Source of the DNA: Pseudoalteromonas sp. MSK9-3
GTDB lineage: Bacteria > Pseudomonadota > Gammaproteobacteria > Enterobacterales > Alteromonadaceae
Length of the DNA stretch: 32,000 nt
Direction: 5' to 3'
Assembly: GCF_003590335.1 (NCBI RefSeq)
Contig: NZ_MIET01000046.1
Coordinates: forward strand, 264,905-296,904
The position numbers and the translations under genes were made by a program. Shown in pieces: positions 2,411-29,312 of the stretch. Numbering within the stretch: the first letter of the stretch is position 1; each line of letters starts with the position of its first letter. The notes beneath the pieces were generated by a model. It was not told the DNA's origin. It worked only from the letters and a program-made list of their open reading frames with translations, and did not search any database.

Positions 2411-5400
2411 TCAATGCGTTATATTTTGTGCAATGTACTCAATTGGGTGTTTAGGCTTTTGGCCTTCATAGCGTTTTACCTGGCTACGACATGAAAATCC
2501 AGTAGACAGTAAAATTGAATCTCTTGATTTATCTATCTCAATTTTCCAAGACATATCATATAACGCTCTTGAGTTTTCTTGGTTTTGAATTTCATGGCCA
2601 TAAGTACCAGCCATACCGCAACATCCAGTACTCGGTGTTGACAAAGATAACCCTAGCTTTGAAAAAATGTCTTTCCAAACCTTACTGGCATTTGGCATTG
2701 CCGTTGTTTCTGTACAATGAGAAAGTAATGTGAATTTCGAGGCTGATTTTTCTTCAGATACAGAAATCCCCTGCCAATCTTGTTGTGAAAACCATTCATG
2801 CGCTAAACTGACTTTAAAGTCACCACATTGCTCGCCCAATATTGTTTTATATTCATCTTTGTAGACCATAACGAGCGATGCATCGAGTCCAATCATTGGA
2901 ATATCATATTGAGAAAGTGAGTTTAAAAACTGACTGGCATTTTTTGCAGCTGTCTTGAACTCTTTTAAAAAACCTTTTACGTGTTGTGCTTTACCATTTG
3001 GTTTGAATGGTAATAAAATTGGTGTTTTGCCAAGAGCGACAACAAGATCTATACATGAAGAAACTAACTCTGCTTCATAAAAAGTTGTAAAAGGGTCTTG
3101 AACAATGAAAACACAGTTCTTTCTTTCAGTCTCAGTTAACGAAGATAATTCGTCACCGTCAAATAAATATTTATGGTGAACTCTGTTATTAACTGAGGGT
3201 ATGCTCAATGTTGGTGTATCGACATAACCAAATATCTTTTTAATTAGAAAGGCTATTGGTTTAGTGTTTACGACTGGATTAATGAATGCGGCACATTTAG
3301 ATAGATATGGTGCAGTCAGTTCAATACTTCCAACTAAGTAATCTTTAAGAGGTCTATTGTATCTACTATGATAAAGATTTAAAAAGCGTGAACGAAATGT
3401 AGGCACGTCTACTTTTATTGGGCAAGCGGTAGTACATGCTTTACACGCTAAACATTCATCCATTGACTCTTTAACTTCATGTGAAAAGTCATACTCTCCT
3501 TTATTTTTTGCTCGAGTATTTAAAAACCTTTCCCACCATGTAATGTCATTCTCTTTATTGATCAATTGCTTTTCAACATCAAGAATATTTACGTCTGCTT
3601 TTTCTTGTAGTCTTAGCCACTCACGAATTAAACTTGCTCGGCCTTTTGGAGAGTGGCGGCGATCTTTCGTCACTTTATAAGACGGGCACATTGGCGAAGA
3701 TTCATCGTAGTTAAAACAAAGTCCGTTACCGTTACAGTTCATGGCATTTTCAAAACTGTCACGAACTTCGATGTCAATTGTCTTATCGAACCAAGCTCTC
3801 TTTTGAGAGTCAACACTTACTAACTCATCTGTACTTTCTAGTGGGGTACAAATTTTTCCTGGGTTTAATCTGTTGTTTTTATCAAATACTGATTTTATTT
3901 TTCGTAATTCAGTAAACAGTGTCTCACCAAAAAAATCGGGACCATATTCGCTGCGGTAACCTTTTCCATGTTCGCCCCACATTAACCCTCTATATTTAGC
4001 TGTTAAAGCCACTACTTGATCCGAAATTTTTCGCAATAATTTTTCTTGTAGTGGATCACTCATATCTAATGCTGGGCGAACATGTAAAACACCAGCATCA
4101 ACATGGCCAAACATTCCGTAGTTTAAATCGTGCGAGTCGAGCAAAGCTCTAAACTCAACAATGAAATCTGCTAAGTTTTCAGGTGGTACGGCGGTGTCTT
4201 CAGCAAATGCGAGCGGTTTTTGTTTTCCTTTTGTGTTACCCAAAAGTCCAACTGCTTTTTTACGCATTGCATATATTTTTAATATATCGGCTTTATCGTT
4301 TATAAGTTGATAACCGATCACCCCTGCTTGCTTATTTGTTATCAAGTCATCTAATTTCTTACACAGTGATGAAATTTTGTCATCCATTTCATTTTCTGTT
4401 TCACCATTAAACTCAACCATATTGAGTCCTTGCATCTCAATGCCTGGAATATTGGTTATTAAGTCCGATACTGAATGCCAAATAATATCTTCTCTTGCCA
4501 AGTTTAATACTTTACTGTCTACAGTTTCTACTGATGTTGCCTTTGCTGAAACAAGAAAAGGTGAGTTTCGAAGCGCTGAATCGAAGCTGTCATATTTAAT
4601 ATTAATCAAAGTTTTAAATGGTGCGATAGGTGTAATATTTAACTTTGCTTCAGTAACAACACCTAACGACCCTTCAGACCCAGTAATGATCCTAGATAAA
4701 TCGAAATTTTCTAGCGTATTATCAAATACGTTTTCTAGGTCATACCCTGTGAGAAATCGGTTTAGCCTAGGGAATTTTTCTAAGATTAATGACCTATTTG
4801 AATGACAGCTATCAATGACTTGTTGATAGATTTGTGACGCCCTGCCTTCTTGGCTTGCAATGACGTGTGCTTTTTCAGTTGATATTCGTCGCGTGTTGAG
4901 TTCGGTGCCGTCGACCAAAAAAGTTTTTAAACCTAAAACATGATCACTAGTCTTTCCGTACACGAGTGAACCTTGTCCAGATGCATCCGTGTTGATCATT
5001 CCCCCCACTGTAGCGCGGTTGCTTGTTGAAAGATCTGGGGCGAAGAAAAAACCATACGGCTTAAGGTAATCATTTAATTGATCTTTTATTACACCCGCTT
5101 GTACTTTTACCCACTTTTCTTCAACATTTATTTCTATGATTTCTCGCATGTGACGCGATAAATCTATCACAATACCTGGCGTGAGTGATTGACCATTAGT
5201 ACCTGTACCACCGCCCCGTGGCCCAAATGTTAATGATAGAAATGGATCTTGTTGCGCACAATGTAATGCTGTTTGAATATCTTTGTTGTTTTTTGGATAT
5301 ATAACAGCTTGAGGGATATTCTGATAGATACTGTTATCAGTAGCCGTGACGAGCCTTGTTGCATAGCTGCTGTCAGTTTCACCTAAAAAACCGTTATTTT

Positions 5401-10584: not shown

Positions 10585-10678
10585 TAATTTTCCTCATTCC
10601 AATGTAGTGTTACCTCACCACGAAAGTATCGTATAGACGTACCGGCTTCAAGGTAAATTTAGTATTTATTTCAGTTAA

Positions 10679-10692
10679 GAACACATCATACT
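10679..10692 (+). other. Putative replication terminator (Ter-like) site 1
   Basis: Exact GAACACATCATACT. The reverse complement AGTATGATGTGTTC resembles E. coli Ter AGTATGTTGTAACT. Confidence 0.6.
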
Positions 10693-11005
10693 AAATTTAG
10701 CGCATTAATGTATCATCTGAACATCTTAATTTATTTAATCTAATCCTTTTAATCAGACCAAAACATATTTAGCTATTGATATGATGAGAGTTAAGTACAC
10801 TCATTTGCGAAATAGATGATTAGCAGTAACTTGAATTGAAGGTTTGGCTGCTTAATGGTTGTTTTTAAAACTGCTAATAATTTTGGACGTGTAACCATTG
10901 AGGAAAAATAATCCAAATGTATGCTAAATGTTTATAAATGAACGACCCTAGAACTGGACCGCTTTAGTTCGAAACATAGACTCTCTTTTTATATTGTGGC
11001 TCCAA

Positions 11006-11194
11006 TCATAAAACTGTCTCTTGTTTACCGAAGTAAACTTCATCTGGTGTAAGTTCATTGGAGCCTTGATTGGCATGCCAGTTATTATGCAGTCTTTTTA
11101 TCAATAAGTTATGAACCGTTACAATATTATTGGTTTTGCCATTGATTAATGTCAAAACGATTATTTTGAATATGTTTTTTAACACAAGGAACAC
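11006..11194 (-). pseudogene. 3' remnant of an integrase-core (rve) transposase/integrase
   Basis: The ORF tail LIKRLHNNWHANQGSNELTPDEVYFGK resembles the conserved end of rve domains (..YN..RPH..L...TP.EVY). There is no upstream catalytic domain. Confidence 0.45.
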
Positions 11195-11203
11195 ATCATA
11201 CTT
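11190..11203 (+). other. Putative Ter-like site 2
   Basis: Exact GAACACATCATACT, in the same orientation. Confidence 0.6.
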
Positions 11204-11325
11204 TATTCGAATAAATATACACTCTCAGCACCGCTATTTAAAAAACATCAATAACCAGTAATAAGCCTTTACGAAACTCAAGTATCGTATGGTGTTGCTT
11301 ACTAAATGATTAACTACTTTTATTT

Positions 11326-11727
11326 GGTGTGTTCAAACGATTAAATACCTCAAACTATGCCTTTAAATGTAAAAAATTTGGAGTTGGTCATAGTACAACC
11401 ATCCTGTAGCTCAACGCAGAATCATCAATATTCGGCTAATCTCAATGCCATCTCAAAATGGCAAAAAACCGAAAGCATGGTGGCCATGGTCCGTTCAAGT
11501 CACTATTCTAATTTAGCAATTGAAACCTGTTTAACCTTAAGACTGTATTCCATTTTCCACAAACACTCTTGGAAGGGTTTTGGAATTCTTTACCCACTAT
11601 GGTGAATATCATATTGCAATCAACCGGTTATTATTGTGAATACAAAAGCAGTAAATATAATGAATGGGCTAGGTATGACAAAATACCAGCAACATAGTTA
11701 ACACTGAAATATTGATTGAAAGTTACC
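11326..11727 (+). mobile_element. Internally deleted IS5-family (IS903-like) element remnant
   Basis: The N-terminal fragment ..HYSNLAIETCLTLRLYSIF..GF resembles IS903-group RYSDLAITTVLVIKRVF.L.LR..QGF. A C-terminal fragment in another frame, NIMNGLGMTKYQQHS*, resembles LN.M...GMP.S. Imperfect terminal inverted repeats start with GGT at both ends. Confidence 0.5.
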
Positions 11728-12139
11728 TATCTGATCAGCAGTGCCTAAGTTAGGTTAGAATTTGAAGTTGTTAGTCTAAGAAGTTGGTTGCGGAAAATAT
11801 ACCTAGTCTATGTGATTATTGGTCTCATAATAATGGACTTAAATTGTCATAAAAAGGATATGAGTATGGAGCAATTAATTTTCATTTTGTTAGCGATCGG
11901 CTTGTCTAAATTACACAGCAATACTATCTCGACTGTTAGATTTAATACAATGTAATAGATCAAACTTTTACTTTCTAATAAGTGAGTTTATATCAATACA
12001 ATTATCGATGTTGTTTTCGGTAAAGTTATACTTTACCGCCCTCTCCCGGCTATAAGTATAAATAGAGTTAAGTTCACTCTCCATTGATGACTATTATCAC
12101 AATAGCAAAAAAGAGATTGTTCTGGTATCATCAGTGAAA

Positions 12140-12153
12140 GAACACATCATACT
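12140..12153 (+). other. Putative Ter-like site 3
   Basis: Exact GAACACATCATACT, in the same orientation. It lies 3 nt from dif-type site B. Confidence 0.6.
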
Positions 12154-12156
12154 ATT

Positions 12157-12184
12157 TCGTTACTTATTTTCAATTATGTTAAAT
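12157..12184 (+). other. dif-type site B in the terminus region: exact XerD arm, divergent left arm
   Basis: TCGTTACTTAT-TTTCAA-TTATGTTAAAT. The right arm matches canonical dif 11/11; the left arm matches GGTGCGCATAA poorly. Confidence 0.4.
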
Positions 12185-13351
12185 TATACAACTTACACAA
12201 AATTCAACTGTCCTACCAAGATTAATATCTTTGAAATTTTTGGTTCTTTTCATAACTCACTTTGTTAAGTTTATTAAAGCTTTTCAAAAATTTGATGAAT
12301 TTTCGTATAAAAATGCATTTCAAAAAAAGAAAATTATCGAAAGCACCATAGTCATGAAGCGAGTACTTCAAAGAGTTCAATTACAATATAGTGACAGTAT
12401 TATCCAGCCACCCTGGAAAAACTTAACTCCAATAAAGGCCACCAATCTTACCTTATTGTGATAGTCGCTTTTGTAAAATTACTATACAATTTCAGATTAA
12501 CAGCTTAAAAATAAACCATATCAACATTCAAAGAGAGTAATTATTAAAACTGACGAGCTATTTATTAAAAATTGCTAACGAACCTGCATTCGCATAATTT
12601 TCATGATATGAAAAATTACGAATAACTACTCAATGCTCCGCTAACTAGCTACCCCTTCAGCAAACGTTAAAAACGTATCAGTGTCGTCACAAGAGATAAG
12701 GTATTTTATATTCCTATTTTCAGTTAATGACTGAATAAAAATATAGATAAGTATTTTTCTTAAAGTTTGTCATTGAGGCCATTTACCAACGACAATCCAA
12801 AACTGAGGAAGTAGTAACCGTGATACAAAGCAGAAAATACTATCATTAAGTTAACCTTTCAATTATGAAAGACCGTATCTTTTAAACACAAGTGAAGGAA
12901 GTAATCCGCTTTCATAGTAAAAACTTAGCTCATTCTATATTTAACACGAAAAGGTGAGAAAGCTGAGGTTTGTAACTTAAAATAAGTTTTTATAACCCAA
13001 AAAGCGTCAATCAACAAAGGTGATATTCCACACTGCTAATTGTAAAGTGGTTTATGTCCTGGTGTCGCTACAACCTAGTCAAATTTAGGTAGTGCCTTTT
13101 TTCATATCGCTCGTTAACACTCAAGAACTATAATAGTAAAAGAGATAACTTATCTCAATACCTACCTGAGCTAAAAGAACATTCATCAATATGTTTAATT
13201 ACTCTCTGCTATTTCCTTGTACTTCTAACATGTAGCTATCGGTTCATTGACCAAGGTACATATTTAAAAATAAGCTTTCAATAAAAATCAATGCTGTCTT
13301 AGTAGAATAAATTCGACCTAAGATAACAATAAATGATAAAATACAGAATAA

Positions 13352-13365
13352 GAACACATCATACT
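13352..13365 (+). other. Putative Ter-like site 4
   Basis: Exact GAACACATCATACT, in the same orientation. Confidence 0.6.
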
Positions 13366-13463
13366 AAACGTTAATTAGTTTTTATATATCGATGTAAACC
13401 TCAGCCAGTTGTCAGAAACAAAATTTAGACTCAAGAGTAACAAACTTGATATAATAAGGAAGA

Positions 13464-13477
13464 GAACACATCATAAG
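13464..13477 (+). other. Putative Ter-like site 5 (variant)
   Basis: GAACACATCATAAG: the last two bases differ, including the C equivalent to E. coli C6. Confidence 0.45.
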
Positions 13478-13527
13478 TAAGCTCGTAGATAAAGAAACAT
13501 CTCGATACGTTTAATGCTCACAAATGT

Positions 13528-13556
13528 AGAACACATCATACTTTAAATGTTATAAT
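13528..13556 (+). promoter_or_regulatory. Putative tus promoter
   Basis: Perfect TATAAT at 13551-13556, with AGAACA 17 bp upstream. Ter-like site 6 fills the spacer. Confidence 0.35.
13529..13542 (+). other. Putative Ter-like site 6, inside the tus promoter
   Basis: Exact GAACACATCATACT. It lies between a weak -35 and the TATAAT at 13551-13556, 50 nt upstream of the tus ATG. Confidence 0.6.
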
Positions 13557-13591
13557 ACACCTATGAACATTACAACTATTTATAATTTAAT

Positions 13592-14473
13592 ATGTCATCA
13601 AGCACCAATCAGTTTAAGCTTAGAGCACATTTTGACCATTTAATGGAGCTTACTTCATTATTTTGTGTCGAATTAGAAAAATCGGATATTATCTCTGCTG
13701 ATTATTATCAACTCCCGAACGTCACAAAAGAATCAGAAGAAAAAGCACCTGAACAAATACAAGTTCAAAAAATAACAGGCAATAAAGCTATTGATAAGAT
13801 TGTTTTTGCTTATAAAGATTTATTTTTAGATGAAAAAGTCAGTGGAAAAGTGCTGCAACGCCACCCAGGTATTATACGTATTAACGACGAAACCCATACT
13901 CTTCAAGCAAGGCTGAAAGAAGTAAATAAAGCAAAAGAAGATTTTAAAAATGCAATTTTACAAATCGAAAATAACGACGCTCGTTTTGAAGCAGTACATA
14001 GTGCAATCCCTAACTTAATGACTTTAGCTGCTTATAGAAAAATACACAGCGAGTTAGCAGAACCATATTCTGTAAGGTTTACATGGATGACAAAACACGC
14101 TACCCGTACTTTAACTAAAGATGCCGCATTAGAAATGCTCAATAAATCTTCAAATTACAATAACCCACGAATGATTGATCAAGAATCTTGGTTATCTCTC
14201 GTACAAAAAGAAAAAGCGCGTGTAGCCAATTTAGCTGAAAAAAGTAAATTAAGAATTAGAAGGCCAACACGAGTATCGCCTGAAATAAATGTTCGATTTA
14301 CTGCAGAAAATAGATATCATGTTAGCGCAGCGTTACCATTTATTCTTTTTAATCCGAGTAAAGATACAAAAATCGGTAGCCTAAAACACTATGAAAAAGT
14401 TGAAAATCATCCAAGAAAGAAAGAATATAACTTTCTCGTAGACAGGATATATCTAGAAAAAGTAAGCGAATAG
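13592..14473 (+). CDS. tus: DNA replication terminus site-binding protein (Tus) homologue, 293 aa
   Basis: Collinear blocks match the remembered E. coli Tus. RFEAVHSAIPNLMTLAAYR aligns with RFEWVHRHLPGLITLNAYR. VRFTWMTKHATRTL aligns with LRFGWANKHIIKNL. SKLRIRRPTRVSPEINVRF aligns with AKLKIKRPVKVQPIARVW. The size is similar (293 vs ~309 aa). Confidence 0.85.
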   Translation: MSSSTNQFKLRAHFDHLMELTSLFCVELEKSDIISADYYQLPNVTKESEEKAPEQIQVQKITGNKAIDKIVFAYKDLFLDEKVSGKVLQRHPGIIRINDETHTLQARLKEVNKAKEDFKNAILQIENNDARFEAVHSAIPNLMTLAAYRKIHSELAEPYSVRFTWMTKHATRTLTKDAALEMLNKSSNYNNPRMIDQESWLSLVQKEKARVANLAEKSKLRIRRPTRVSPEINVRFTAENRYHVSAALPFILFNPSKDTKIGSLKHYEKVENHPRKKEYNFLVDRIYLEKVSE

Positions 14474-14474
14474 C

Positions 14475-15689
14475 TTACTTTTTCACTATTTGTTCTAAGA
14501 TTTCTTCATCAATCACTTCAACATCTTCAACAATACGCTTTCCACCTTGGATTTCAATACGCTTATTATGTTTATTTAAAGTCAGTATTTCATCGCAAAA
14601 CTGTGATGATGGATGCATTTCATAAACGTAATCGATGATCTTGCCTGTATTGTCATCCTTTACATTGCTTATGCTGTAATCAGAAATCGCGCCTTTTTCA
14701 ATCAAATCTTTCATTGTTGTTGTCATATCGCGACGTAAAGCCTTCAATTTATTCTCAACAATTTCATCGGTGGAATAAATTGACCCATACTTTTCCATGA
14801 TTGACAAAAGACGAAAATGATACGTTTTTCCTGGTGCTGCATAGCGCCATAAATGATATAAACGTAACATCATCCAACGTGACAAACCGCGCTTTAATTC
14901 TTGTGCACTATTAAAATAATATCCTTTATACTCTAAATTATCGATCATATTATGAACAAACGCATTCAAACACGCGACACATTTAATGTTGCCACCTTGC
15001 CCCTTTTTACCGCTAAAGTGCAGTGAAGATAAAAAGTTCATATTTGATTCATAGAATGAGTCATCAATATCGGTATTTTTTGTATCCGTTGCTGAGTATT
15101 TGAACGAAAGTTTAGAACCTTGTAACGCTTCTAAAGACTCTTTAATTTGTGGGTAAGGCATTGACTGACCCACGGCTTTGAGTTCTTGAGCTAATTCGTT
15201 CATTGAAAATATTACAGCATATTGAATACCGGACTTAAAATTTATTTTTACAATTTTTCCTTTTGACGCGAGACGAATAAGCGCACGTTCTACTTTTTCT
15301 TCTCTATCAGATGGCCAAACCAGATACTCTAGGTCTTCTCCATCTTTCTTACTACTTACAACAGCCGGGGTTATTTTTATCTCACCTTCATACAAAATAC
15401 CGTCAACTTTTTCTGAGATTCGCCGTGTGATGATCGTTTTTTTAGGCGCTTCTTCTAAAGGAAGTTTTTTATGACCCGAACGGACAAATCGACCCCAAAG
15501 ATCATAGTGATTGAATGTATTAGAATAAGCTCGCAACCCATACGCAGCATTTTCTAATGATATACGAACATCTTTATTATCCGTAAACAGCGCCAAACTT
15601 TCGTTATCAATAGCGCTTTCCACACCATGTATCTGACCCCTTAGTGAATCGGGCAGATTATCAACAGAGATGTTCACCTTTCGGCTCAT
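14475..15689 (-). CDS. Plasmid-type replication initiator (Rep, winged-helix/TrfA-RepA-like), about 404 aa
   Basis: The gene is divergent from parA across an iteron/GATC/DnaA-box region. The likely start is the ATG at 15689, with GGAAG 7 nt upstream; the ORF track extends to a TTG at 15740. The family assignment comes from context and general Rep-like character, not from a recognised motif. Confidence 0.65.
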   Translation of the reverse strand: MSRKVNISVDNLPDSLRGQIHGVESAIDNESLALFTDNKDVRISLENAAYGLRAYSNTFNHYDLWGRFVRSGHKKLPLEEAPKKTIITRRISEKVDGILYEGEIKITPAVVSSKKDGEDLEYLVWPSDREEKVERALIRLASKGKIVKINFKSGIQYAVIFSMNELAQELKAVGQSMPYPQIKESLEALQGSKLSFKYSATDTKNTDIDDSFYESNMNFLSSLHFSGKKGQGGNIKCVACLNAFVHNMIDNLEYKGYYFNSAQELKRGLSRWMMLRLYHLWRYAAPGKTYHFRLLSIMEKYGSIYSTDEIVENKLKALRRDMTTTMKDLIEKGAISDYSISNVKDDNTGKIIDYVYEMHPSSQFCDEILTLNKHNKRIEIQGGKRIVEDVEVIDEEILEQIVKK

Positions 15690-15740
15690 TATTTTACTTC
15701 CAAAATTTATGACAGCTAATAACAACATATTCATGAACAA

Positions 15741-16324
15741 AAGTTAATGATTTAAGTTAGTATAAAACTGATCTATCCAAGTTTTTTTTTTGAGATCGCT
15801 TTTTTACTAACTAGACAAAAATAAAGATCATCTTTTTACTAACTAAGGTTGGTTATTAAGCTTTTTGTGCACAAAACACTGTTTAATTCTGGTTGAAATA
15901 CGGTGTTATTGTATCGATTGTGGATAACTGCACACAATGTTGGTATAGATCAGATCTGTACTTAGGATAGATCCGATCTTTATTTACTTGATCATAAGAA
16001 TCAAAATCGAAATGTTTATAACCATTTGAATTTACTTAGTAAAAATGTGATCTAACGGGTCGGAAATGTGTATAAGTGTGTGGGTAACCTGTTCACTCCT
16101 TTACTTTAAATATAGGAGTTAGTAAAAAGAGGATCCATGAGTACATAAAGATCAGATCTTTACTTCGTACAAATTAGATCTGCTATTTTTAACATTATTC
16201 ATATATATCATATGGTTATGTTCTTTTTAGCAAACCCTATCCTTTAATACCTATATACTTAACCATATTTAATCTTCTTATTTATACTTAGTTAAGTAAT
16301 TTTATATGATGTCTTATATTTTTT
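15741..16324. other. Plasmid-type replication origin (ori of the secondary replicon)
   Basis: Five 18-bp iterons GTTAGTAAAAAnnnGATC lie at 15756-15773 (+), 15794-15811 (-), 15826-15843 (-), 16035-16052 (+) and 16118-16135 (+). There are 13 GATC sites between 15770 and 16180. Three AGATCnGATCTnTACTT-type repeats lie at 15947-15963, 15969-15989 and 16149-16165. An AT-rich tract spans 16186-16324. Confidence 0.8.
15919..15927 (-). promoter_or_regulatory. Perfect DnaA box
   Basis: TGTGGATAA is the reverse complement of the consensus TTATCCACA. It sits centrally between the two iteron groups. Confidence 0.7.
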
Positions 16325-16384
16325 GTGTTTACTACTAAAGTAATGGACATTATAATGATAGGTATCAAGTCAAGGATATCGCGT

Positions 16385-17620
16385 ATGTCAATTAATAACA
16401 AAGCACTTTCAACATATCGTTTATTAAAAGCAACAGCAGAAGTTGCTGAACAATCACTAGAAGGTCGTATACAGCATTATAGGGCCCATTTAAAGACAGA
16501 TGAGAAAGAGCTAAGAACCTATACACAAAAAGCCGCAGCTGATTTGCTTGGATGTAATAATAGAACATTAAAACGACGTCATGACCAAGGTGATTTTGAT
16601 CACCTTAGTATCCAAAAAGGTGCAAACGGGCATTACGCATACACATTGTCAAATATCTTCGCAATGGCCGAAATCTTAGGTGTAGAGGCTGATCAAAGAA
16701 AAACAGGCGATAAACTCCAAGTGATCGTTATCAATTCACTAAAAGGCGGCTGTGGCAAAACCACGTCTTTGGTGAATATTGCAGCTGCTTTAGCCACCAC
16801 AAATATTAAGCGATACAGAATTGGTATTATTGATCTAGACCCACAGGGATCATCATCTAGCTTTTTTCCGGCTAACGATCCTGAGCCGATAACAGTGGGA
16901 GATCTAATGAGAGACTGTATCGAGTTAGATGAAAACGAAACATGGGCTCAGGTTGTATCAAATGCATTTCAAGAAACGCATATCCCAAATATACGCGTTT
17001 TACCATCAGGGATGGACGATTTTTATTTCGAACATGAAACAGCCACTGAACTTAAAGAAAGCTCAGGATATGAACAGACCCGACATTATCACAAACTATT
17101 AGAAAAAGTTATTGCACCTGTTGAGTCACAATTTGATCTAATTCTAATAGATACAGCGCCCTCATTGAATTTTATGTTTTACAATGCGCTCATGGCCTCT
17201 ACAGCAATGCTCATACCAGTCCATCCTGAGGCTGTTGATTTTGACGCTAATAACAAATATCTAAAAAGACTTGGTGAGATTTATCATACAGTCGCCGCAC
17301 TTGGCCATGATGGTTGGGATTTCATGCAATTTTTAGTGACAAACTATGTTAAAGGTAACCATTCTCAAAGAGACATAGTGAAAGATGTAAGAAGTGCTTT
17401 TGGACGACAAGTTATGAGTTACCCAATAAATCATAGCTCTGCAATCACAGCCAGTTCATCATCGTTCAACACTATTTTTGATCAAAAAACATCTGATAGT
17501 TTGGCAAGCAGAGAGTCACTTGTTAAATCACAAGAAAATATTAAAGATGTTGTAGACGAACTAGAAATGTTGATCAGGTCAAATTGGTTATCCACACAAT
17601 CTTCATTAGCACAATCTTAA
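16385..17620 (+). CDS. parA: Type Ia partition ATPase ParA (long N-terminal HTH form), about 411 aa
   Basis: Deviant Walker A KGGCGKTT, plus DLDPQGS and LILIDTAPS. The ATG at 16385 has AAGGA 8 nt upstream; the ORF is open from 16325. Confidence 0.9.
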   Translation: MSINNKALSTYRLLKATAEVAEQSLEGRIQHYRAHLKTDEKELRTYTQKAAADLLGCNNRTLKRRHDQGDFDHLSIQKGANGHYAYTLSNIFAMAEILGVEADQRKTGDKLQVIVINSLKGGCGKTTSLVNIAAALATTNIKRYRIGIIDLDPQGSSSSFFPANDPEPITVGDLMRDCIELDENETWAQVVSNAFQETHIPNIRVLPSGMDDFYFEHETATELKESSGYEQTRHYHKLLEKVIAPVESQFDLILIDTAPSLNFMFYNALMASTAMLIPVHPEAVDFDANNKYLKRLGEIYHTVAALGHDGWDFMQFLVTNYVKGNHSQRDIVKDVRSAFGRQVMSYPINHSSAITASSSSFNTIFDQKTSDSLASRESLVKSQENIKDVVDELEMLIRSNWLSTQSSLAQS

Positions 17621-17636: not shown

Positions 17637-18599
17637 ATGGCTAAAAAACGTAAGAACGATACCCGGTTAGATCCATTTGCAACTGCAGTTGAAGGGAGCA
17701 GTTTAGATGATCTTTTAGATCAAGCGAAAATAGGTGATGTGATCACCATGCCAGCACCTAGTGATCCATTACGTACAATCACATTAACATGCCAAGTAAT
17801 AAAATCAGCCGATATAGAAACGACTACTCAAGTTTATGGTCAAAATAGACGGGAACAAAGTTTATTGAACGAAAAGTCTGTTGCAGATATCTTACCAGCC
17901 ATAAAACACGATAAGAGAAACCTCCACCCGGCTCTGTGCTGGCAAAAAGGTGCTCAGCAATGGGTGTTATCAGGTTCAAGGAGAAGAAAGGCTTGTATGC
18001 TCGCTCAGGCTGACTATGTTGTATTGTCGTCCGCTGATTTTAATGATGATGATGCAAAAGCTCTTGCCATCTCTTCAGATCAATATATTGCACCAAGCTT
18101 ATGGGAACTAGGAAAAGCATATAGCACGACTAAACACAACTTAGTTAATCAAGGTTTGAAAGGCTCTTACCGTGAAATTGCCGCTATTGAAGGCATTTCT
18201 CACACCGCGGTTGCTGATGCTATAAAAGCTTTCGAGGTTATTCCTAAAAGTGTTCTTAGCTTATATCCAACGCCAAATCACTTAGGCAGAGAAGCAGCTA
18301 AAAAGCTCATTAACGCGATTAAAGATAATAAGTCTGCATTTGAACAACAAGTTTGTCATTTTAGTCAACAATCATTCATTAGCGATGAACAAAGCGATGA
18401 AAAACGGGCAATGCTTACAACTCAGTTTTTAACAACATTTGGTGATAAAGCTAATCGCACAGAAGCTTTGTTAGAAAACAAGTTCATTAAATTACAACGT
18501 AATATAAAAAGTGGTGATGTAACAATTAAAATCGACAATAAAGTGTTAACTGATAAGCGCCTTGAACAGCTACAAAAATTGTTAGCTGGCTATAATTAA
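17637..18599 (+). CDS. parB: Plasmid-type partition protein ParB, 320 aa
   Basis: The gene lies immediately downstream of parA. It has a GSRRR arginine patch and an HTH (YREIAAIEGISHTAVADAIKA). Confidence 0.85.
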   Translation: MAKKRKNDTRLDPFATAVEGSSLDDLLDQAKIGDVITMPAPSDPLRTITLTCQVIKSADIETTTQVYGQNRREQSLLNEKSVADILPAIKHDKRNLHPALCWQKGAQQWVLSGSRRRKACMLAQADYVVLSSADFNDDDAKALAISSDQYIAPSLWELGKAYSTTKHNLVNQGLKGSYREIAAIEGISHTAVADAIKAFEVIPKSVLSLYPTPNHLGREAAKKLINAIKDNKSAFEQQVCHFSQQSFISDEQSDEKRAMLTTQFLTTFGDKANRTEALLENKFIKLQRNIKSGDVTIKIDNKVLTDKRLEQLQKLLAGYN

Positions 18600-18616
18600 C
18601 ACCTTAAATGTTTCAC

Positions 18617-18670
18617 GTAACTGGTTGATATTCATACTTTGGTCTATAAAGGTGAACTCCAACCAGTTAC
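18617..18670. repeat. 11-bp perfect inverted repeat with a 32-bp spacer downstream of parB (candidate centromere or terminator)
   Basis: GTAACTGGTTG ... CAACCAGTTAC. It is overlapped on the left by TGTTTCACGT (18609-18618), which equals the first 10 nt of the canonical chromosomal parS TGTTTCACGTGAAACA. Confidence 0.35.
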
Positions 18671-18758
18671 TGTTCGCAACTTTATTATGACTTTACCCTT
18701 TAGCTCGTTCCTATAATTTCATATACTGGCGAAATATTTCATTTGTCATGCTGAGCTG

Positions 18759-22357: not shown

Positions 22358-23047
22358 ATGCAGCACATCCTTATAGTTGAAGATGACTTTGATATAGCAG
22401 AGCAAGTCATGTTGTTTTTTAAAGCATCTGGATTTAAAACGTCACATATTGCTGACGGTGCTGAGGTTGTGCCTTGGGTTGAAGAAAATAGCCCAGATGC
22501 GATTTTGATGGACATTATGCTGCCGAACCAAGATGGTGTGGAATGCATGAAGCAGATCCGAGCTTTTTCTATGGTGCCAATTATTATGATGACGGCCAAA
22601 GTGGCTGAATCAGATAGGTTAAAAGGGCTTGAGTTTGGTGCTGACGATTATGTGTGTAAACCCTTTAGCGCCGCTGAATTAGTAATGCGTATGAAAGCCA
22701 TTTTGCGTCGCTGTGCTCCTTTAGCAGATGCTGAGTCAGAAAAGTTGGTGAATGTCGATGAGGCGCAGTTGACGGTAACATTAAAAGGGCAATTATTAGC
22801 ATTAACGAAGGTGGAGTTTGATGTGTTTGCATTACTGTATAACGCGCCAAGCCGAGTCTTTTCGCGTCAGCAGATCCTAGATTATATTCAACCAGACAAC
22901 TTTGACATTTCAGATCGAGTCATTGATAGTCACATCAAAAATATTCGTAAAAAAATAAAATCTTTGAATATTTCTCCAAAATTGGTTGGGTCGGTTTACG
23001 GTGCCGGCTATCGCTATGATGAGCAGCAAATCAATAACAGTAATTAA
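22358..23047 (+). CDS. OmpR/PhoB-family response regulator, 229 aa
   Basis: Receiver motifs LIVEDD, DIMLP and TAK are present, with a C-terminal winged-helix ending GAGYRY. Confidence 0.9.
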   Translation: MQHILIVEDDFDIAEQVMLFFKASGFKTSHIADGAEVVPWVEENSPDAILMDIMLPNQDGVECMKQIRAFSMVPIIMMTAKVAESDRLKGLEFGADDYVCKPFSAAELVMRMKAILRRCAPLADAESEKLVNVDEAQLTVTLKGQLLALTKVEFDVFALLYNAPSRVFSRQQILDYIQPDNFDISDRVIDSHIKNIRKKIKSLNISPKLVGSVYGAGYRYDEQQINNSN

Positions 23048-25292: not shown

Positions 25293-27338
25293 TTATGCTT
25301 TTGTTGGTATTATAGGTAAAGTTAAACGAACACATAAGCCCCCAGACTTGCCGTGATGTAGTTTAATGTCACCTTGTAAGGCGTGCGTTAAGCCTTCGCA
25401 TATAGAGAGCCCTAGACCTGATCCTCCTAATGCCCTACTACGAGACTTATCTATGCGATACAGTCGCTCAAATAGTTTATTAAGCTCGGCTTCAGAAACA
25501 CCTGGGGTGCTATCGTCAATCTGAATGAATATATGTTTTGTATTTACTCTGACTTTTAATCGAATGTGTCCTGGGCTATCAGTGTATAAACACGCATTTT
25601 TAGCTAAGTTAGTAATAATTTGATCCAGTTTTTGTTTATCGGTCGTGAATATCGTTGCTTCAGGAATATCGATGTCAGCTATAAATCGTAAATTAGATTG
25701 TTCTGCGAGTGTTTTCATATCCGCTATGTAATGTGAAGTAAGTGTACTTAAGTGACACTCCTGCCATATCAAATGAATTGACTGATTTTGCACTTGAGAT
25801 AATTGATATACGTCAGAGATGAGGTTATTTAGCTGCGACATTTTATTATATATTTTAGTGTAAGCGAGTACCTTGTCATCGAGCAAGTTATGCTCCAAAG
25901 CTTCAATATGTAGTTGTAATACACTTAATGGTGTTCTGAGTTCATGAGAAATATCAGCCAACATTTGGTCTTTTTGTTTCAAATTCGCTTGATATAGACT
26001 TGCCTTATATTGGGCATTGCGATGTTTTATGACATATAAGTACACGGTGACGACACTGAATAGTAAAATTATGATACATGCCAGCAGCCATGTGCGCTTT
26101 TGCAAAATTTGTTTCTCGAGTTCAACTTTCATTACTGCTGACTTTTTTTCTGTTTGGGCTAGTTTTTGATATTGAACCAGGGCGTTAACTTGCCGTTTAT
26201 ATTGCTCGGTGGCACCTTGAGTTATTTCTTGATCTGCTAGTTTATGAATAGCAAATGCGCTCAGTAAAGCGTGATACGCTTCTTCATGTTGATTTTTAAG
26301 CATACGGTATTGTGCTTTAGCATATTGAAGCTGGGCATCTAGTTTTTTATCATTTATGCCTTTGAGGATCTCTTGGGCTTTTGGGAGGTATAGTTCAAGA
26401 AGGTCGGTGTTTTTTAACTGAATATGTAGTTCTATTAGATGTAAATAGGCATTTGCTTTTCTTATTGGAGATTGCGTTTTTAAAGCATGATTTAAACTTT
26501 GTTGTACTGAACTGAGCGCCATATGAGGGTTATCTAGCTTCAAGTAGATGCGGTGCAATGAGTTATATGCACGTGCTAGATTTGCATTGGCCTCCAGTGG
26601 CTTTAGTATGCTAATGACTTCTATAAATTGATCTAACGCTTCGTTGTATTTGTTATTTTTCAGTTTTATCTCTGCAAGCCTTATTCCTGTGTCTGCAATG
26701 TTTTTTACTTCCTCTGACTTTTTATCATTGATGAGTGCTTCATTAAAAAAGTGTTCTGCTTGTTCAAAATTATGAATGCGTACTGATAGGTCACCTAAGT
26801 TATAAAAGTTGGAAGCCTTCATTTCCCAATCTTTAGATGTTTCAAGAAATTTTTGGGCCTTTAAATGGTACTTCATAGACAGAGCCACGTTGTTTTTTGC
26901 ATCATACAATGACCCGAGATTATTATAAGACTGGCCTATGAGTGATTTATTATTGAGAGATTTAGCTATTTTCAGTGCTTTTAAATAATGCTTTTTGGCT
27001 ATTTTTAGTTGATGGCTGCGTCGGTAGTTGATCCCAAGCTCTTTGGTTACATCATAAAGAAGAGCTTTAGAAGGTAGGTTAATTAAAGAGATGGTATTAA
27101 GTTGCATGATGGCGTCATCATACCTATTTTGTTTACGTAAAACTTTTGCGAGTTTGAGCTTTGTTTTATTCTCATCGAACTTGCCACTGCGTTCGAGAGT
27201 TTTTAGCAAAGTATGTGCTTGTGTTAATTGCCCTTGATTTATCAGCACATCCACATCATTGAATGATGGTTGTGCCAATACAATGCCAGTAAAAGTGATA
27301 TTAAAGAAGAAAAAAACCTGAGCTAAATAGTGTTTCAT
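25293..27338 (-). CDS. Sensor histidine kinase with a large N-terminal TPR-repeat domain, 681 aa
   Basis: Signal peptide, about 400 aa of TPR-like repeats, a TM segment (LLACIIILLFSVVTVYLYVI), H-box SHELRTPL, and ATPase G-box GGSGLGLSI. Confidence 0.9.
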   Translation of the reverse strand: MKHYLAQVFFFFNITFTGIVLAQPSFNDVDVLINQGQLTQAHTLLKTLERSGKFDENKTKLKLAKVLRKQNRYDDAIMQLNTISLINLPSKALLYDVTKELGINYRRSHQLKIAKKHYLKALKIAKSLNNKSLIGQSYNNLGSLYDAKNNVALSMKYHLKAQKFLETSKDWEMKASNFYNLGDLSVRIHNFEQAEHFFNEALINDKKSEEVKNIADTGIRLAEIKLKNNKYNEALDQFIEVISILKPLEANANLARAYNSLHRIYLKLDNPHMALSSVQQSLNHALKTQSPIRKANAYLHLIELHIQLKNTDLLELYLPKAQEILKGINDKKLDAQLQYAKAQYRMLKNQHEEAYHALLSAFAIHKLADQEITQGATEQYKRQVNALVQYQKLAQTEKKSAVMKVELEKQILQKRTWLLACIIILLFSVVTVYLYVIKHRNAQYKASLYQANLKQKDQMLADISHELRTPLSVLQLHIEALEHNLLDDKVLAYTKIYNKMSQLNNLISDVYQLSQVQNQSIHLIWQECHLSTLTSHYIADMKTLAEQSNLRFIADIDIPEATIFTTDKQKLDQIITNLAKNACLYTDSPGHIRLKVRVNTKHIFIQIDDSTPGVSEAELNKLFERLYRIDKSRSRALGGSGLGLSICEGLTHALQGDIKLHHGKSGGLCVRLTLPIIPTKA

Positions 27339-27402: not shown

Positions 27403-27419
27403 TGTAAAGGGCCTTTACA
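27403..27419. repeat. 17-bp perfect palindrome TGTAAAGG-G-CCTTTACA
   Basis: Read directly. It lies 43 bp left of the distal iteron cluster, in the kinase upstream region. Confidence 0.6.
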
Positions 27420-27461: not shown

Positions 27462-27653
27462 GTTAGTAAAATTGTGTTTTATCAATGCTGGCGTTAGTAA
27501 AAATTTGATTTATAACTGTGCCAAAGTTAGTAAAAATGTGCTCTGTGAGCGATTAAGCTCTATTTATTGGTGAAATAATTGGCTGGAAATATGTTTTAGC
27601 GGTAATTCTTGAATGCTACGTTGAATTTGCCAAAAGATAGTAAAAATATGATC
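27462..27653 (+). repeat. Distal cluster of four origin-type iterons
   Basis: GTTAGTAAAATTGTGTTT (27462), GTTAGTAAAAATTTGATT (27493), GTTAGTAAAAATGTGCTC (27526) and GATAGTAAAAATATGATC (27636). All are on the + strand, with spacings of 31, 33 and 110 bp. They share the core of the ori iterons. Confidence 0.7.
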
Positions 27654-27670
27654 CGGTGTGTGTGTAGAGC

Positions 27671-27697
27671 AATAAAGAGCCTGTTAGGCTCTTTATT
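27671..27697 (-). terminator. Terminator of the isocitrate lyase gene
   Basis: AATAAAGAGCC-tgtta-GGCTCTTTATT: a perfect 11-bp stem 10 nt after the stop. Confidence 0.75.
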
Positions 27698-27707
27698 GGC
27701 ATCATTT

Positions 27708-29312
27708 TTAGAATTGATTCATGGTATTAGCCGACCCGCCAGCTTTTAGTGCATTTTCTCCTGAAAAATACTCTTTATGGGTATCTCCAATGTTAGACCC
27801 TGCAAGGTCTTGGTGTTTCACTGAGGCCTGCTCCCTGCGGATCTCTTGACGTTGCACATCTCTGACATATGCGAGCATTCCGAGCTCACCAAAGTAGCCT
27901 TCTGACAGAATATCAGTGCTCAGTGCCGTGGTATGGTAGGTTGGTAATGTGATCAAGTGATGGAAAATTCCTGCTTCTCGCGCCCCGTCTTTTTGAAAAT
28001 TCTGTACCAGCAAATCTGCTTCACGAGCAAGTTCTGTATTATCTAATTCTGGACTCATCAAGGCTTTCGGATCATGGCTTGGATCTGGATAGTGACTTAA
28101 GTCTTTTTGCTGTGCTTGCCACTGTGCATAGACTTGCTCTCGGAATTTCAGTGTCCAGTTAAATGAAGGTGAGTTGTTATAAACCAGTTTGGCGTCGGGC
28201 ACCTGCTCTTTAATGCTATTGACCAGTTCGGCGATTTGACTAACATTGGGCTTTTCAGTTTCAATCCACAGTAAGTCGGCACCTGATTGTAAGCTCGTAA
28301 CGCAATCTAATATGACACGTGCTTTTTCTGATCCTTCTTTAAATTGATATAGACCATTATCAAGGCGCGTTGGTTTGCAGAGTTGCCCATCGAGTTTTAT
28401 CGCCATTTCGCCGTCATTTAGTTCATCTATATTATCGACCACGGTTGTTTCTAAAAATGCGGTATATTGGCTTGCGATATCTCCAGGCGTTTTTGATACC
28501 GGGATCTTTTGCGTTAGACTTGCGCCCAAAGAGTCTGTTCTGGCGACAATTATTCCCTCTTCCACACCCAGTTCTAAAAATGCATAGCGTACAGCATTAA
28601 TTTTTGCGAGAAAATCTTCATGTGGCACCGTGACTTTTCCTGCTTGGTGGCCGCATTGCTTAGCGTCTGATACCTGATTTTCTATTTGAATGGCACAGGC
28701 GCCCGCTTCAATCATTTTTTTAGCCAATAAGTAAGTTGCCTCTTCATTACCAAAACCAGCATCAATATCGGCTATGATTGGTACAACATGTGTTTCAAAA
28801 TTATCAATTCGCGAAATGATTTCTTGGGTCTGTTTACCTTGGGATATTGCATCATCTAACTCCCGGTATAAGTGGTCTAATTCGCGTGCATCTGCTTGTT
28901 TTAAAAAGGTATAGATCTCTTCAATTAATGACGCGACAGACGTCTTTTCATGCATACTTTGATCTGGCAGCGGGCCAAATTCTGACCGCAGTGCTGCAAC
29001 CATCCAGCCACTTAAGTACACGTATGAGCGCTTGGTTGTTTTTTGATGCTTTTTCACAGCCATCATCATTTGTTGTGCAGTAAAACCATGCCAGCAGCCT
29101 AGTGATTGTGTGTATTGACTCTTATCTGCATCATACGCTGCCATATCTTGGCGCATGATATTTGCTGTGTATTTCGCAATATCAAGGCCTGTCTTGAACC
29201 TGTTTTGAAGGCTCATTCGACTAGCAAACTCTGGGTTTATAGACTGCCATGTTGACTTGTTGCCCTGACAAAGGGTTGTATAGTGATCTACTTTAGCTTG
29301 GTAGTTTTTCAT
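27708..29312 (-). CDS. aceA: Isocitrate lyase (long ~530-aa form), 534 aa
   Basis: ICL signature KQCGHQAGK, an AAGGA RBS, and a divergent malate synthase gene alongside. Confidence 0.92.
   Translation of the reverse strand: MKNYQAKVDHYTTLCQGNKSTWQSINPEFASRMSLQNRFKTGLDIAKYTANIMRQDMAAYDADKSQYTQSLGCWHGFTAQQMMMAVKKHQKTTKRSYVYLSGWMVAALRSEFGPLPDQSMHEKTSVASLIEEIYTFLKQADARELDHLYRELDDAISQGKQTQEIISRIDNFETHVVPIIADIDAGFGNEEATYLLAKKMIEAGACAIQIENQVSDAKQCGHQAGKVTVPHEDFLAKINAVRYAFLELGVEEGIIVARTDSLGASLTQKIPVSKTPGDIASQYTAFLETTVVDNIDELNDGEMAIKLDGQLCKPTRLDNGLYQFKEGSEKARVILDCVTSLQSGADLLWIETEKPNVSQIAELVNSIKEQVPDAKLVYNNSPSFNWTLKFREQVYAQWQAQQKDLSHYPDPSHDPKALMSPELDNTELAREADLLVQNFQKDGAREAGIFHHLITLPTYHTTALSTDILSEGYFGELGMLAYVRDVQRQEIRREQASVKHQDLAGSNIGDTHKEYFSGENALKAGGSANTMNQF

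Follow-up and report, generated by a model that had tools for sequence, protein, structure and literature searches.

The subject of this analysis is a cluster of four direct repeats at positions 27462-27655 of a 32,000-nucleotide stretch of DNA from Pseudoalteromonas sp. MSK9-3 (NCBI RefSeq assembly GCF_003590335.1, contig NZ_MIET01000046.1, positions 264,905 to 296,904 of the forward strand), hereafter termed the window. With tus, repA, an intergenic origin (ori2), parA and parB, the window is the origin region of the second chromosome (chromid) of this Pseudoalteromonas, and the repeats in question are of the same type as the iterons of ori2. We consider it rather probable that the cluster is a remote, methylation-independent control locus outside the origin, bound by the initiator RepA and restraining re-initiation. 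The identity of the sites, their enrichment, their conservation, the constrained nature of a class of sites without GATC, the covariation of the motif with Rep and the double winged-helix fold of the initiator were all computed here.

Systematic scoring with a 20-nucleotide weight matrix, trained on 265 origin sites from 70 related loci, gave the complete repeat as the 20-mer (G/C)TTAGTAAAAWnnTGATCTG. The preliminary description of this DNA had reported four direct copies at 31-, 33- and 110-bp spacing between the start of a histidine kinase gene and the aceA terminator, and this is exactly what is found, the spacings being measured from start to start. All four copies lie on the forward strand. 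The first three are devoid of GATC (class II), namely GTTAGTAAAATTGTGTTTTA at 27462-27481 (score 20.4, tail GTTT), GTTAGTAAAAATTTGATTTA at 27493-27512 (score 25.9, tail GATT) and GTTAGTAAAAATGTGCTCTG at 27526-27545 (score 25.7, tail GCTC), while the copy closing the cluster, GATAGTAAAAATATGATCCG at 27636-27655 (score 22.7), is GATC-bearing (class I) and holds the sole GATC of the 369-bp intergenic region. It was likewise confirmed that every origin iteron carries GATC and that only one in four does so in the distal cluster. The kinase start at 27338 (minus strand) bounds the cluster on its left; on its right follow the terminator hairpin of aceA (27670-27698, -12.8 kcal/mol, z -6.1), which forms the right boundary of the conserved module described below, and then the aceA stop at 27708.

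Chance does not account for these repeats. The exact 9-mer core TAGTAAAAA occurs 8 times in the window against 1.17 expected, in agreement with the earlier estimate of about one, and none of 100 shuffles reached 8. At a matrix threshold of 16 there are 11 sites in the window as against about 0.03 per 32 kb in shuffled sequence; six belong to ori2 (one of them weaker), four to the cluster, and one stands alone at 25608. The window therefore holds, outside its origin, multiple 20-bp repeats, within the range of about 17-22 bp usual for iterons, that match those of the origin well above chance. The earlier figure of about eleven copies mixed exact cores with cores bearing one mismatch, and a tally of 5-6 origin and 5 extra-origin sites is to be preferred. 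For the two isolated copies formerly placed in a terminus desert (12915 and 13134), the full-length matrix gives scores below 10, and they are thus chance matches to the core only, in A+T-rich DNA.

The former two-cluster tally had in turn left out the full-length GATC-bearing site GTTAGTAATAATTTGATCCA at 25608-25627 (forward strand, score 22.3), which lies inside the coding sequence for the N-box of the kinase (LDQIITN). Only one base change is seen in this 20-mer across four species (including loci L001-L003), while the codons on either side vary. L006 and L007 have a near-identical variant, GTTAGTAATAATCTGATC, outside any coding sequence, and L008 has the related GTTAGTAATATCCTGATC; none of the three possesses the kinase gene, remnants of which were searched for in L004-L009 without any being found.

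The cluster is 11.5 kb from ori2 and 11.3 kb from its last iteron, with parA, parB, genes for an SNF2 helicase, a response regulator and RmuC, an open reading frame (ORF) of 186 amino acids and the kinase gene lying between repA and the cluster, so that it is not adjacent to rep. The combination of repA and ori2 was established by experiment as the minimal replicon in P. tunicata and P. spongiae (Xie et al., PMC7858055), and since these two elements alone replicate, in species other than the window strain, the extra sites would not be needed for initiation.

Three of the four cluster sites thus lack a Dam target, and the tails of such sites were analysed as a class. To keep the tail from influencing the selection, sites were picked solely by their core, which yielded 41 distinct non-GATC sequences from distant clusters. 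Among them G15 is retained in 83%, T17 in 80%, Y18 in 90% and T19 in 76%, whereas A16 is retained in only 12%, the typical tails being GGTT, GTTT, GTTC and GCTC. The rest of the tail is kept and it is mainly the methylatable adenine that is lost, which indicates selection against the Dam target and not decay; the view in the preliminary description that the GATC tail had mostly decayed is accordingly given up, since the other tail positions are constrained. These patterns point to the GATC-less sites as a selected class that shares a 20-bp scaffold with the origin iterons, and such sites may be expected to bind RepA independently of methylation.

Conservation of the intergenic region tells a similar story. 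In an alignment of eight species, whose ParB proteins are 69-88% identical, the only conserved blocks are the iterons, a palindrome on their left and the aceA terminator. Between palindrome and terminator, 45 of 80 columns are invariant within the iterons as against 2 of about 160 elsewhere. Each of the three GATC-less iterons coincides with a conserved block, the third with 14 invariant columns, and in the closing iteron TGATC is invariant in all eight species. The alignment supports the view that the cluster iterons are genuine origin-type iterons under selection, and neither chance matches nor a decaying relic. At face value, four origin-type repeats of which three are without GATC do look like the decay of a duplicated or integrated origin, or like an auxiliary origin that still fires. 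Such an origin is nevertheless hardly credible, as the module has been preserved genus-wide between diverged flanks, the tail positions are still constrained, and the vicinity of the cluster offers no rep gene, no DnaA box, no A+T-rich unwinding region and no run of GATC resembling 13-mers (one GATC in 369 bp). An auxiliary origin at the 369-bp intergenic region was rejected on the same grounds, i.e. the lack of a DnaA box, an unwinding element and a GATC cluster.

Beyond this alignment, extra-origin sites scoring at least 17 were counted over 71 loci. The parAB side of ori2 has 367 in 672 kb, the tus side only 4 in 498 kb, and parAB itself contains none; the extra-origin iterons of the window itself all lie on the parAB side as well. 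Two locations recur, one directly past the parB stop in a majority clade and the other abutting the 3' end of aceA. The majority clade has 5-6 sites that start 2 bp after the parB stop, about 2.6 kb from ori2, most of them GATC-bearing; in addition, the coding sequence of the SNF2/ywqA helicase contains a solo GATC iteron and a palindrome. These helicase-embedded sites occur in L019-L049 and their relatives, at about +2590 to +2800 from the parB start (12605-12621 and 12792-12811 in L032). They fall at protein positions that are unconserved in the window orthologue, which suggests DNA-level selection inside the gene.

The aceA-linked module has a definite internal order. It opens with a GATC site that is on the opposite strand in most relatives, on the same strand in its window counterpart at 25608, and missing in NC201; then come the palindrome, three to five GATC-less iterons about 31-42 bp apart, a gap of about 100-170 bp, one to four GATC iterons, and the aceA stop. 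The same order is found in the window, in NC201, in HL-AS2 and in seven of eight further complete chromids, the genomes and strains concerned being NC201, HL-AS2, shioyasakiensis, CF6-2, donghaensis, HL-AS1, Bsw20308, CuT4-3 and THAF3. Conservation in related genomes, which had been put forward earlier as a check on the cluster, was thereby borne out, the cluster being kept genus-wide as a module although its distance to ori2 is not fixed. That distance is anything between 8 and 72 kb, and with respect to ori2 the module is oriented as in the window in 6 chromids and inverted in 8; nothing marks out 11.5 kb as a tuned position, and the idea that this particular distance serves as a timing device is weakened. 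Duplication soon after initiation, on the other hand, was rightly anticipated, in that all 14 complete chromids have the module on the parAB side, which is replicated early.

This synteny also bears on a local explanation, by which the repeats would be an operator bound by the OmpR-type regulator encoded at 22358-23047, or by RepA, to control the kinase gene at 25293-27338. OmpR-family proteins do bind direct repeats, the repeats sit 124-317 bp upstream of the kinase start, and one weak promoter-like match overlaps the region, although such matches in the intergenic region are no commoner than in shuffled controls. The module is nonetheless kept in L004-L009, which have no kinase gene and show extra GATC-bearing iterons in non-coding DNA, and in all majority-clade chromids, which are without the kinase and also lack the regulator gene near ori2; in nine complete chromids its left neighbour is an S9 peptidase or another gene in place of the kinase. 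The repeat sequence is moreover identical to that of the origin iterons, and its fixed relation is to the 3' end of aceA, not to any promoter. Because the module persists in genomes devoid of kinase and regulator, the OmpR site named in the preliminary description as the competing account is largely excluded by synteny, and we regard an operator of any such kind as very improbable. A search of the intergenic region against Rfam returned no family.

Individual genomes add further detail. When 250 of the 680 kb of the HL-AS2 chromid (NZ_CP133572.1, L078) were scanned, 21 extra-origin sites were found against about 8 origin sites. On the parAB side all 21 fall into the 76 kb nearest ori2, and the remaining 137 kb covered by the scan contain none. 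At 59078-62144 this chromid has a third field of eight iterons, most of them GATC-bearing and several located within genes, 51-54 kb from ori2, adjoining a further palindrome copy at 58941; solo sites occur at 52313 and 95572. A metagenome scan with TTAGTAAAANNNNGGTTT, a loose query, returned among the matches listed mostly chance matches from unrelated organisms, together with two relevant ones, L122 (aceA module) and L162 (ori2); no Chr1 (chromosome 1) or other new context was seen among them. In L028, four matches to the core TAGTAAAA lie on the minus strand at 14695-15273 with a spacing of about 193 bp; all are below the full-site threshold and probably represent an unrelated tandem repeat.

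Whether the iteron is a site for the initiator or for the partition system can be approached by asking with which protein it covaries. Within the genus Rep is 84-99% identical and the iteron core is invariant, and covariation was for this reason examined in more distant replicons. A P. donghaensis plasmid whose Rep is 48% identical (L072) carries TAACGTGTAAATGCGATCTG, with at least 13 iterons AATAACGTGTAAATGCGATCTG at a 43-bp period, and a P. carrageenovora plasmid with a Rep 49% identical (L073) carries the iteron CATAGAGGTAAAGTGATCTG. In both arrays (4495-5476 in L072, 3966-5029 in L073), which have periods of 43-45 bp, the GATCTG tail is kept and the 5' half is different; in the L072 copy at 4887, GGTC replaces GATC. 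No homologue of the window ParAB was found in the few kilobases fetched around rep in either plasmid; in L072 this amounted to 8 kb, where a PRTRC-type ParB is annotated. A metagenome-assembled replicon (L074), with a Rep 67% identical, has TwCGAGAAAT..TGATCTG at its origin and, just past parB, two GATC-less copies, ACTTCGAGAAATTTTGCTCTG and ..TTTTGTTTTG, whose tails, GCTC and GTTT, also occur in the window cluster; GATC and GATC-less classes have thus undergone the change of the 5' half together. By these sequence comparisons the iteron motif tracks Rep and not ParB, and RepA may be presumed to bind both classes of site.

No Pfam, NCBIfam or PDB sequence match was obtained for RepA by sequence-family searches. 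Its AlphaFold model, of moderate confidence (predicted local distance difference test, pLDDT, 71; predicted template modelling score, pTM, 0.67), was compared with the PDB by Foldseek, and the closest structures were domains 2-3 of RctB (5tbf, E 1.2e-8), RepE54 (8e-4) and Pi (2nra, 1.7e-3), followed by other iteron-bound Reps. The model thus identifies RepA as an initiator with a predicted double winged-helix Rep fold.

The conserved palindrome on the left of the iterons, TGTAAAGGGCCTTTACA at 27403-27419 (TGTAAAG-GGC-CTTTACA), starts 59 bp before the first iteron. Its general form is GTAAA-S5-TTTAC (TGTAAA-S5-TTTACA), it folds weakly (-6.2 kcal/mol, z -1.8), and it is seen in the window and in L001-L070, L074, L076, L077-L079 and L082-L089. 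Over the 71 loci, 70 copies lie to the right of parB and none to the left, and HL-AS2 has 7 in the 112 kb next to ori2. The distance to the nearest extra-origin iteron has a median of 188 bp and is often below 200 bp, and from the palindrome start to the first iteron there are 58-77 bp in L004-L011 and NC201. As the palindrome shares GTAAA with the iteron, it was considered as an operator for a Rep dimer; this was set aside, the arms being unchanged in L074, whose iteron core lacks GTAAA. That the arms stay the same while the 5' half of the iteron differs implies two different proteins, and RepA is probably not the one that binds the palindrome, which is a good candidate for the parS centromere of the chromid ParAB, or else for another protein site of the module.

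Partition offers the most substantial alternative account, in which iterons and palindrome would together form part of the ParAB centromere, or in which spreading of ParB would modulate RepA occupancy and so couple segregation to replication. The majority-clade iterons, five or six in number and beginning 2 bp past the parB stop, occupy the classic position of a type Ia centromere, the palindrome is regularly found near extra-origin iterons, in L074 the order is parB stop, palindrome and GATC-less iterons, and a precedent exists in the competition between ParB2 and the 39-mer at V. cholerae parS2 (PMC6090056). The iteron itself is non-palindromic, however; no other element is repeated in the origin, for whose replication repA alone suffices (PMC7858055), it covaries with Rep in plasmids showing no window-type ParAB in the few kilobases fetched, and in L074 it changes while the palindrome arms stay constant. 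Being asymmetric and following Rep, the iteron does not behave as a parS, for which the palindrome at 27403-27419 is the better candidate. We consider the partition account unlikely, with the qualification that its coupling version is compatible with a RepA-binding control locus and not exclusive of it. An extension of the coupling idea, speculative and of low probability, would make the module a combined centromere-and-initiator checkpoint, in which ParB spreading from the palindrome and non-methylatable, cell-cycle-independent RepA sites would switch the timing of RepA release to ori2. If true, this checkpoint would tie together segregation, the state of Dam methylation and the timing of initiation on a chromid that replicates in one direction. 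It would then parallel, by independent evolution, the V. cholerae rctA circuit of parS2 and 39-mer, built from ordinary iterons minus their Dam target.

Returning to the favoured reading, that of a remote locus restraining re-initiation, the following mechanism can be proposed. RepA monomers would recognise one 20-bp scaffold at ori2 and at the module alike. After passage of the fork, the GATC-bearing origin sites would be hemimethylated, and hence sequestered and/or poor in RepA binding, whereas the three GATC-less sites, having no Dam target, could hold RepA all through the cell cycle. Because the module lies on the first-replicated side of ori2, its copy number would double soon after initiation, while the GATC-rich origin is still hemimethylated. 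The doubled module would lower the RepA available to ori2 (titration) and may pair with the origin iterons through RepA-RepA contacts (handcuffing), and titration and/or handcuffing would then restrain re-initiation and set copy number.

Several considerations weigh against this reading. That RepA binds, that the effect is negative and that methylation plays a part are elements that we infer. Should RepA require a methylated GATC, in the way that RctB requires one at the 12-mers, binding at the GATC-less sites might be weak or might involve a different form of RepA. By an established argument of the iteron-plasmid field, pure titration is buffered where initiators are autoregulated, so titration alone may be insufficient. 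The variation in distance and orientation makes a finely position-tuned device unlikely. The phenolica group (L012-L018) and L063 have no extra-origin iterons within 10 kb of parB, and in P. xiamenensis a single site is left at aceA, from which it follows that some lineages can do without the module or replace it; in the phenolica group and L063 it may have been lost or moved. Finally, the lasting linkage of the module to the 3' end of aceA is not accounted for. It can be added that the phenolica group has 6-8 origin sites and retains the palindrome between the kinase (or the 186-amino-acid ORF) and aceA.

The sign of the effect could also be the opposite, with the GATC-less sites acting as a RepA reservoir or a remodelling site, similar to crtS or DARS, that promotes initiation at ori2. 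The crtS site of V. cholerae is methylation-independent and stimulates initiation (PMC6090056), the GATC-less class is conserved and distinct from the origin iterons, and the timer of Pseudoalteromonas chromosome 2 (Chr2) is still to be found (PMC7858055, PMC13342612). A timer coupling Chr2 to Chr1 should, however, sit on Chr1, the GATC-less sites retain the ordinary iteron scaffold, and the extra-origin iteron clusters that have been studied in plasmids as well as the remote locus of V. cholerae Chr2 are all inhibitory. A positive element is on these grounds quite improbable.

On Vibrio cholerae Chr2, the 12-mers carry GATC and bind RctB only if methylated, while the inhibitory 39-mers are without GATC (PMC6090056). 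A remote RctB locus on the same chromosome comprises five iterons together with a single site resembling a 39-mer, at a distance of about 40 kb from ori2 (Baek and Chattoraj 2014, summarised in PMC6090056), and by analogy this titration locus appears to be the closest counterpart of the window cluster. Like it and like E. coli datA, the window cluster is a set of initiator sites kilobases to tens of kilobases from the origin, on the same replicon and in its early-replicated part, and it shares with the RctB locus the mixing of origin-type with methylation-independent sites. RctB and the window RepA have a related double winged-helix core, according to the predicted model, although they belong to different sequence families, and initiator titration would be the common role. 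The two site classes of the window share a 20-bp scaffold, whereas the 12-mers and 39-mers of V. cholerae are unrelated to each other; in contrast to the RctB locus and datA, the window module is tightly organised and tied genus-wide to a palindrome and to the 3' end of aceA.

The preliminary description had seen here a methylation-independent regulatory locus in the manner of P1 incA or the Vibrio 39-mers. The first part is sustained by a conserved GATC-less state that fits such a class of sites, while the two models chosen are looser analogies than the remote RctB locus. P1 incA and F incC resemble the window cluster in consisting of origin-type iterons outside the minimal origin that are dispensable for initiation, and by analogy titration and handcuffing would be expected of the window cluster too; the majority-clade cluster, just past the par operon and about 2.6 kb from ori2, also recalls them. 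They abut the rep gene, whereas the window cluster is 11.5 kb away (8-72 kb in relatives), resides on a chromid of 0.7-1.3 Mb and has its sites split into Dam-target and non-target classes. With the V. cholerae 39-mers and 29-mer the GATC-less sites have in common the lack of GATC and, as proposed here, the role of inhibitory partners of GATC-bearing origin iterons. A V. cholerae 39-mer is also found next to parS2, with ParB2 spreading over it (PMC6090056), which recalls the palindrome beside the window cluster. The 39-mers differ from the 12-mers in sequence and length and lie inside ori2-inc, however, while each GATC-less site of the window is an ordinary iteron whose Dam site has undergone one or two substitutions, remote from the origin, and so these sites correspond to 39-mers in neither length nor location.

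Of 70 loci fetched by ParB, those nearest to the window come from P. aurantia S3788 (ParB 98%), P. citrea (88%) and P. aurantia 208 (81%). Origin markers begin with tus (13592-14473) and repA, the chromid initiator gene, annotated as an ORF at 14475-15740 on the minus strand. The real start of repA is probably the ATG at 15689, since homologues have 401-408 amino acids and alignments start at residue 18-21. ori2 spans 15756-16182 and includes class I iterons, all with GATC, at 15756 (+), 15792 (-), 15824 (-), 16035 (+) and 16118 (+) and a weaker one at 16163 (+), as scored with the same matrix, together with a DnaA box (15919-15927) and an A+T-rich stretch up to parA. GATC occurs there 13 times within 450 bp, whereas the window as a whole averages 3.9 per kb. 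At 15948-15995 and 16150-16182 are GATCT-n-T-rich elements, GATCTGTACTTAG, GATCTTTATTTAC and GATCTTTACTTCG, which recall the 13-mer consensus of E. coli oriC and may be the unwinding region of ori2. The type Ia partition operon follows with parA (16325-17620, +) and parB (17637-18599, +). An inverted repeat, GTAACTGGTTG ... CAACCAGTTAC, is present directly past the parB stop at 18616-18674; its right arm is partly conserved in L032, and the 160-bp spacer between parB and the SNF2 gene, in which the repeat lies, is free of iterons in the clade of the window.

With respect to replication direction, a candidate dif2 site, TCCTATAATTTACGTTATGTTAAAT, with an exact XerD arm TTATGTTAAAT, was detected at 445-469 on the minus strand as a single match with 3 mismatches (0.09 expected). 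Lying about 15 kb left of ori2, this dif2-like site would put the terminus left of the origin, which is consistent with unidirectional rightward replication through parAB, as predicted in the preliminary description. Most Pseudoalteromonas chromids replicate unidirectionally, the published dif2-ori2 distances are 4-27 kb, and marker-frequency data published for the genus agree with rightward replication (PMC7858055). To the left of tus is an A+T-rich stretch with few ORFs (10600-13590), in which a weak iteron-like site at 11956 (minus strand, score 15.3) and a hairpin, GGTAAAGTTATACTTTACC at 12019-12037, were noted, neither being conserved in L002 or L003.

Overall, we present a 20-bp predicted RepA site, two classes of it that differ only in the Dam target, a remote conserved module with exact coordinates, a candidate centromere, and a structural link of the RepA model to RctB, RepE and Pi; in the full-text literature searched, no paper was found that describes the iterons of Pseudoalteromonas chromids or initiator sites located beyond ori2. 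The mechanism by which Pseudoalteromonas Chr2 is controlled and timed has been stated as open (PMC7858055), and it has been asked that such "timers" be found in more systems (PMC13342612). The finding would fit iteron-based control through extra-origin initiator sites and bears on the question of how replication is limited and timed in secondary chromosomes of bacteria other than Vibrio. The control circuit is now open to direct testing, TAC125 and P. tunicata being genetically tractable, and, if the reading is true, Pseudoalteromonas would provide a second, independent chromid that uses non-methylatable initiator sites alongside methylatable origin sites.

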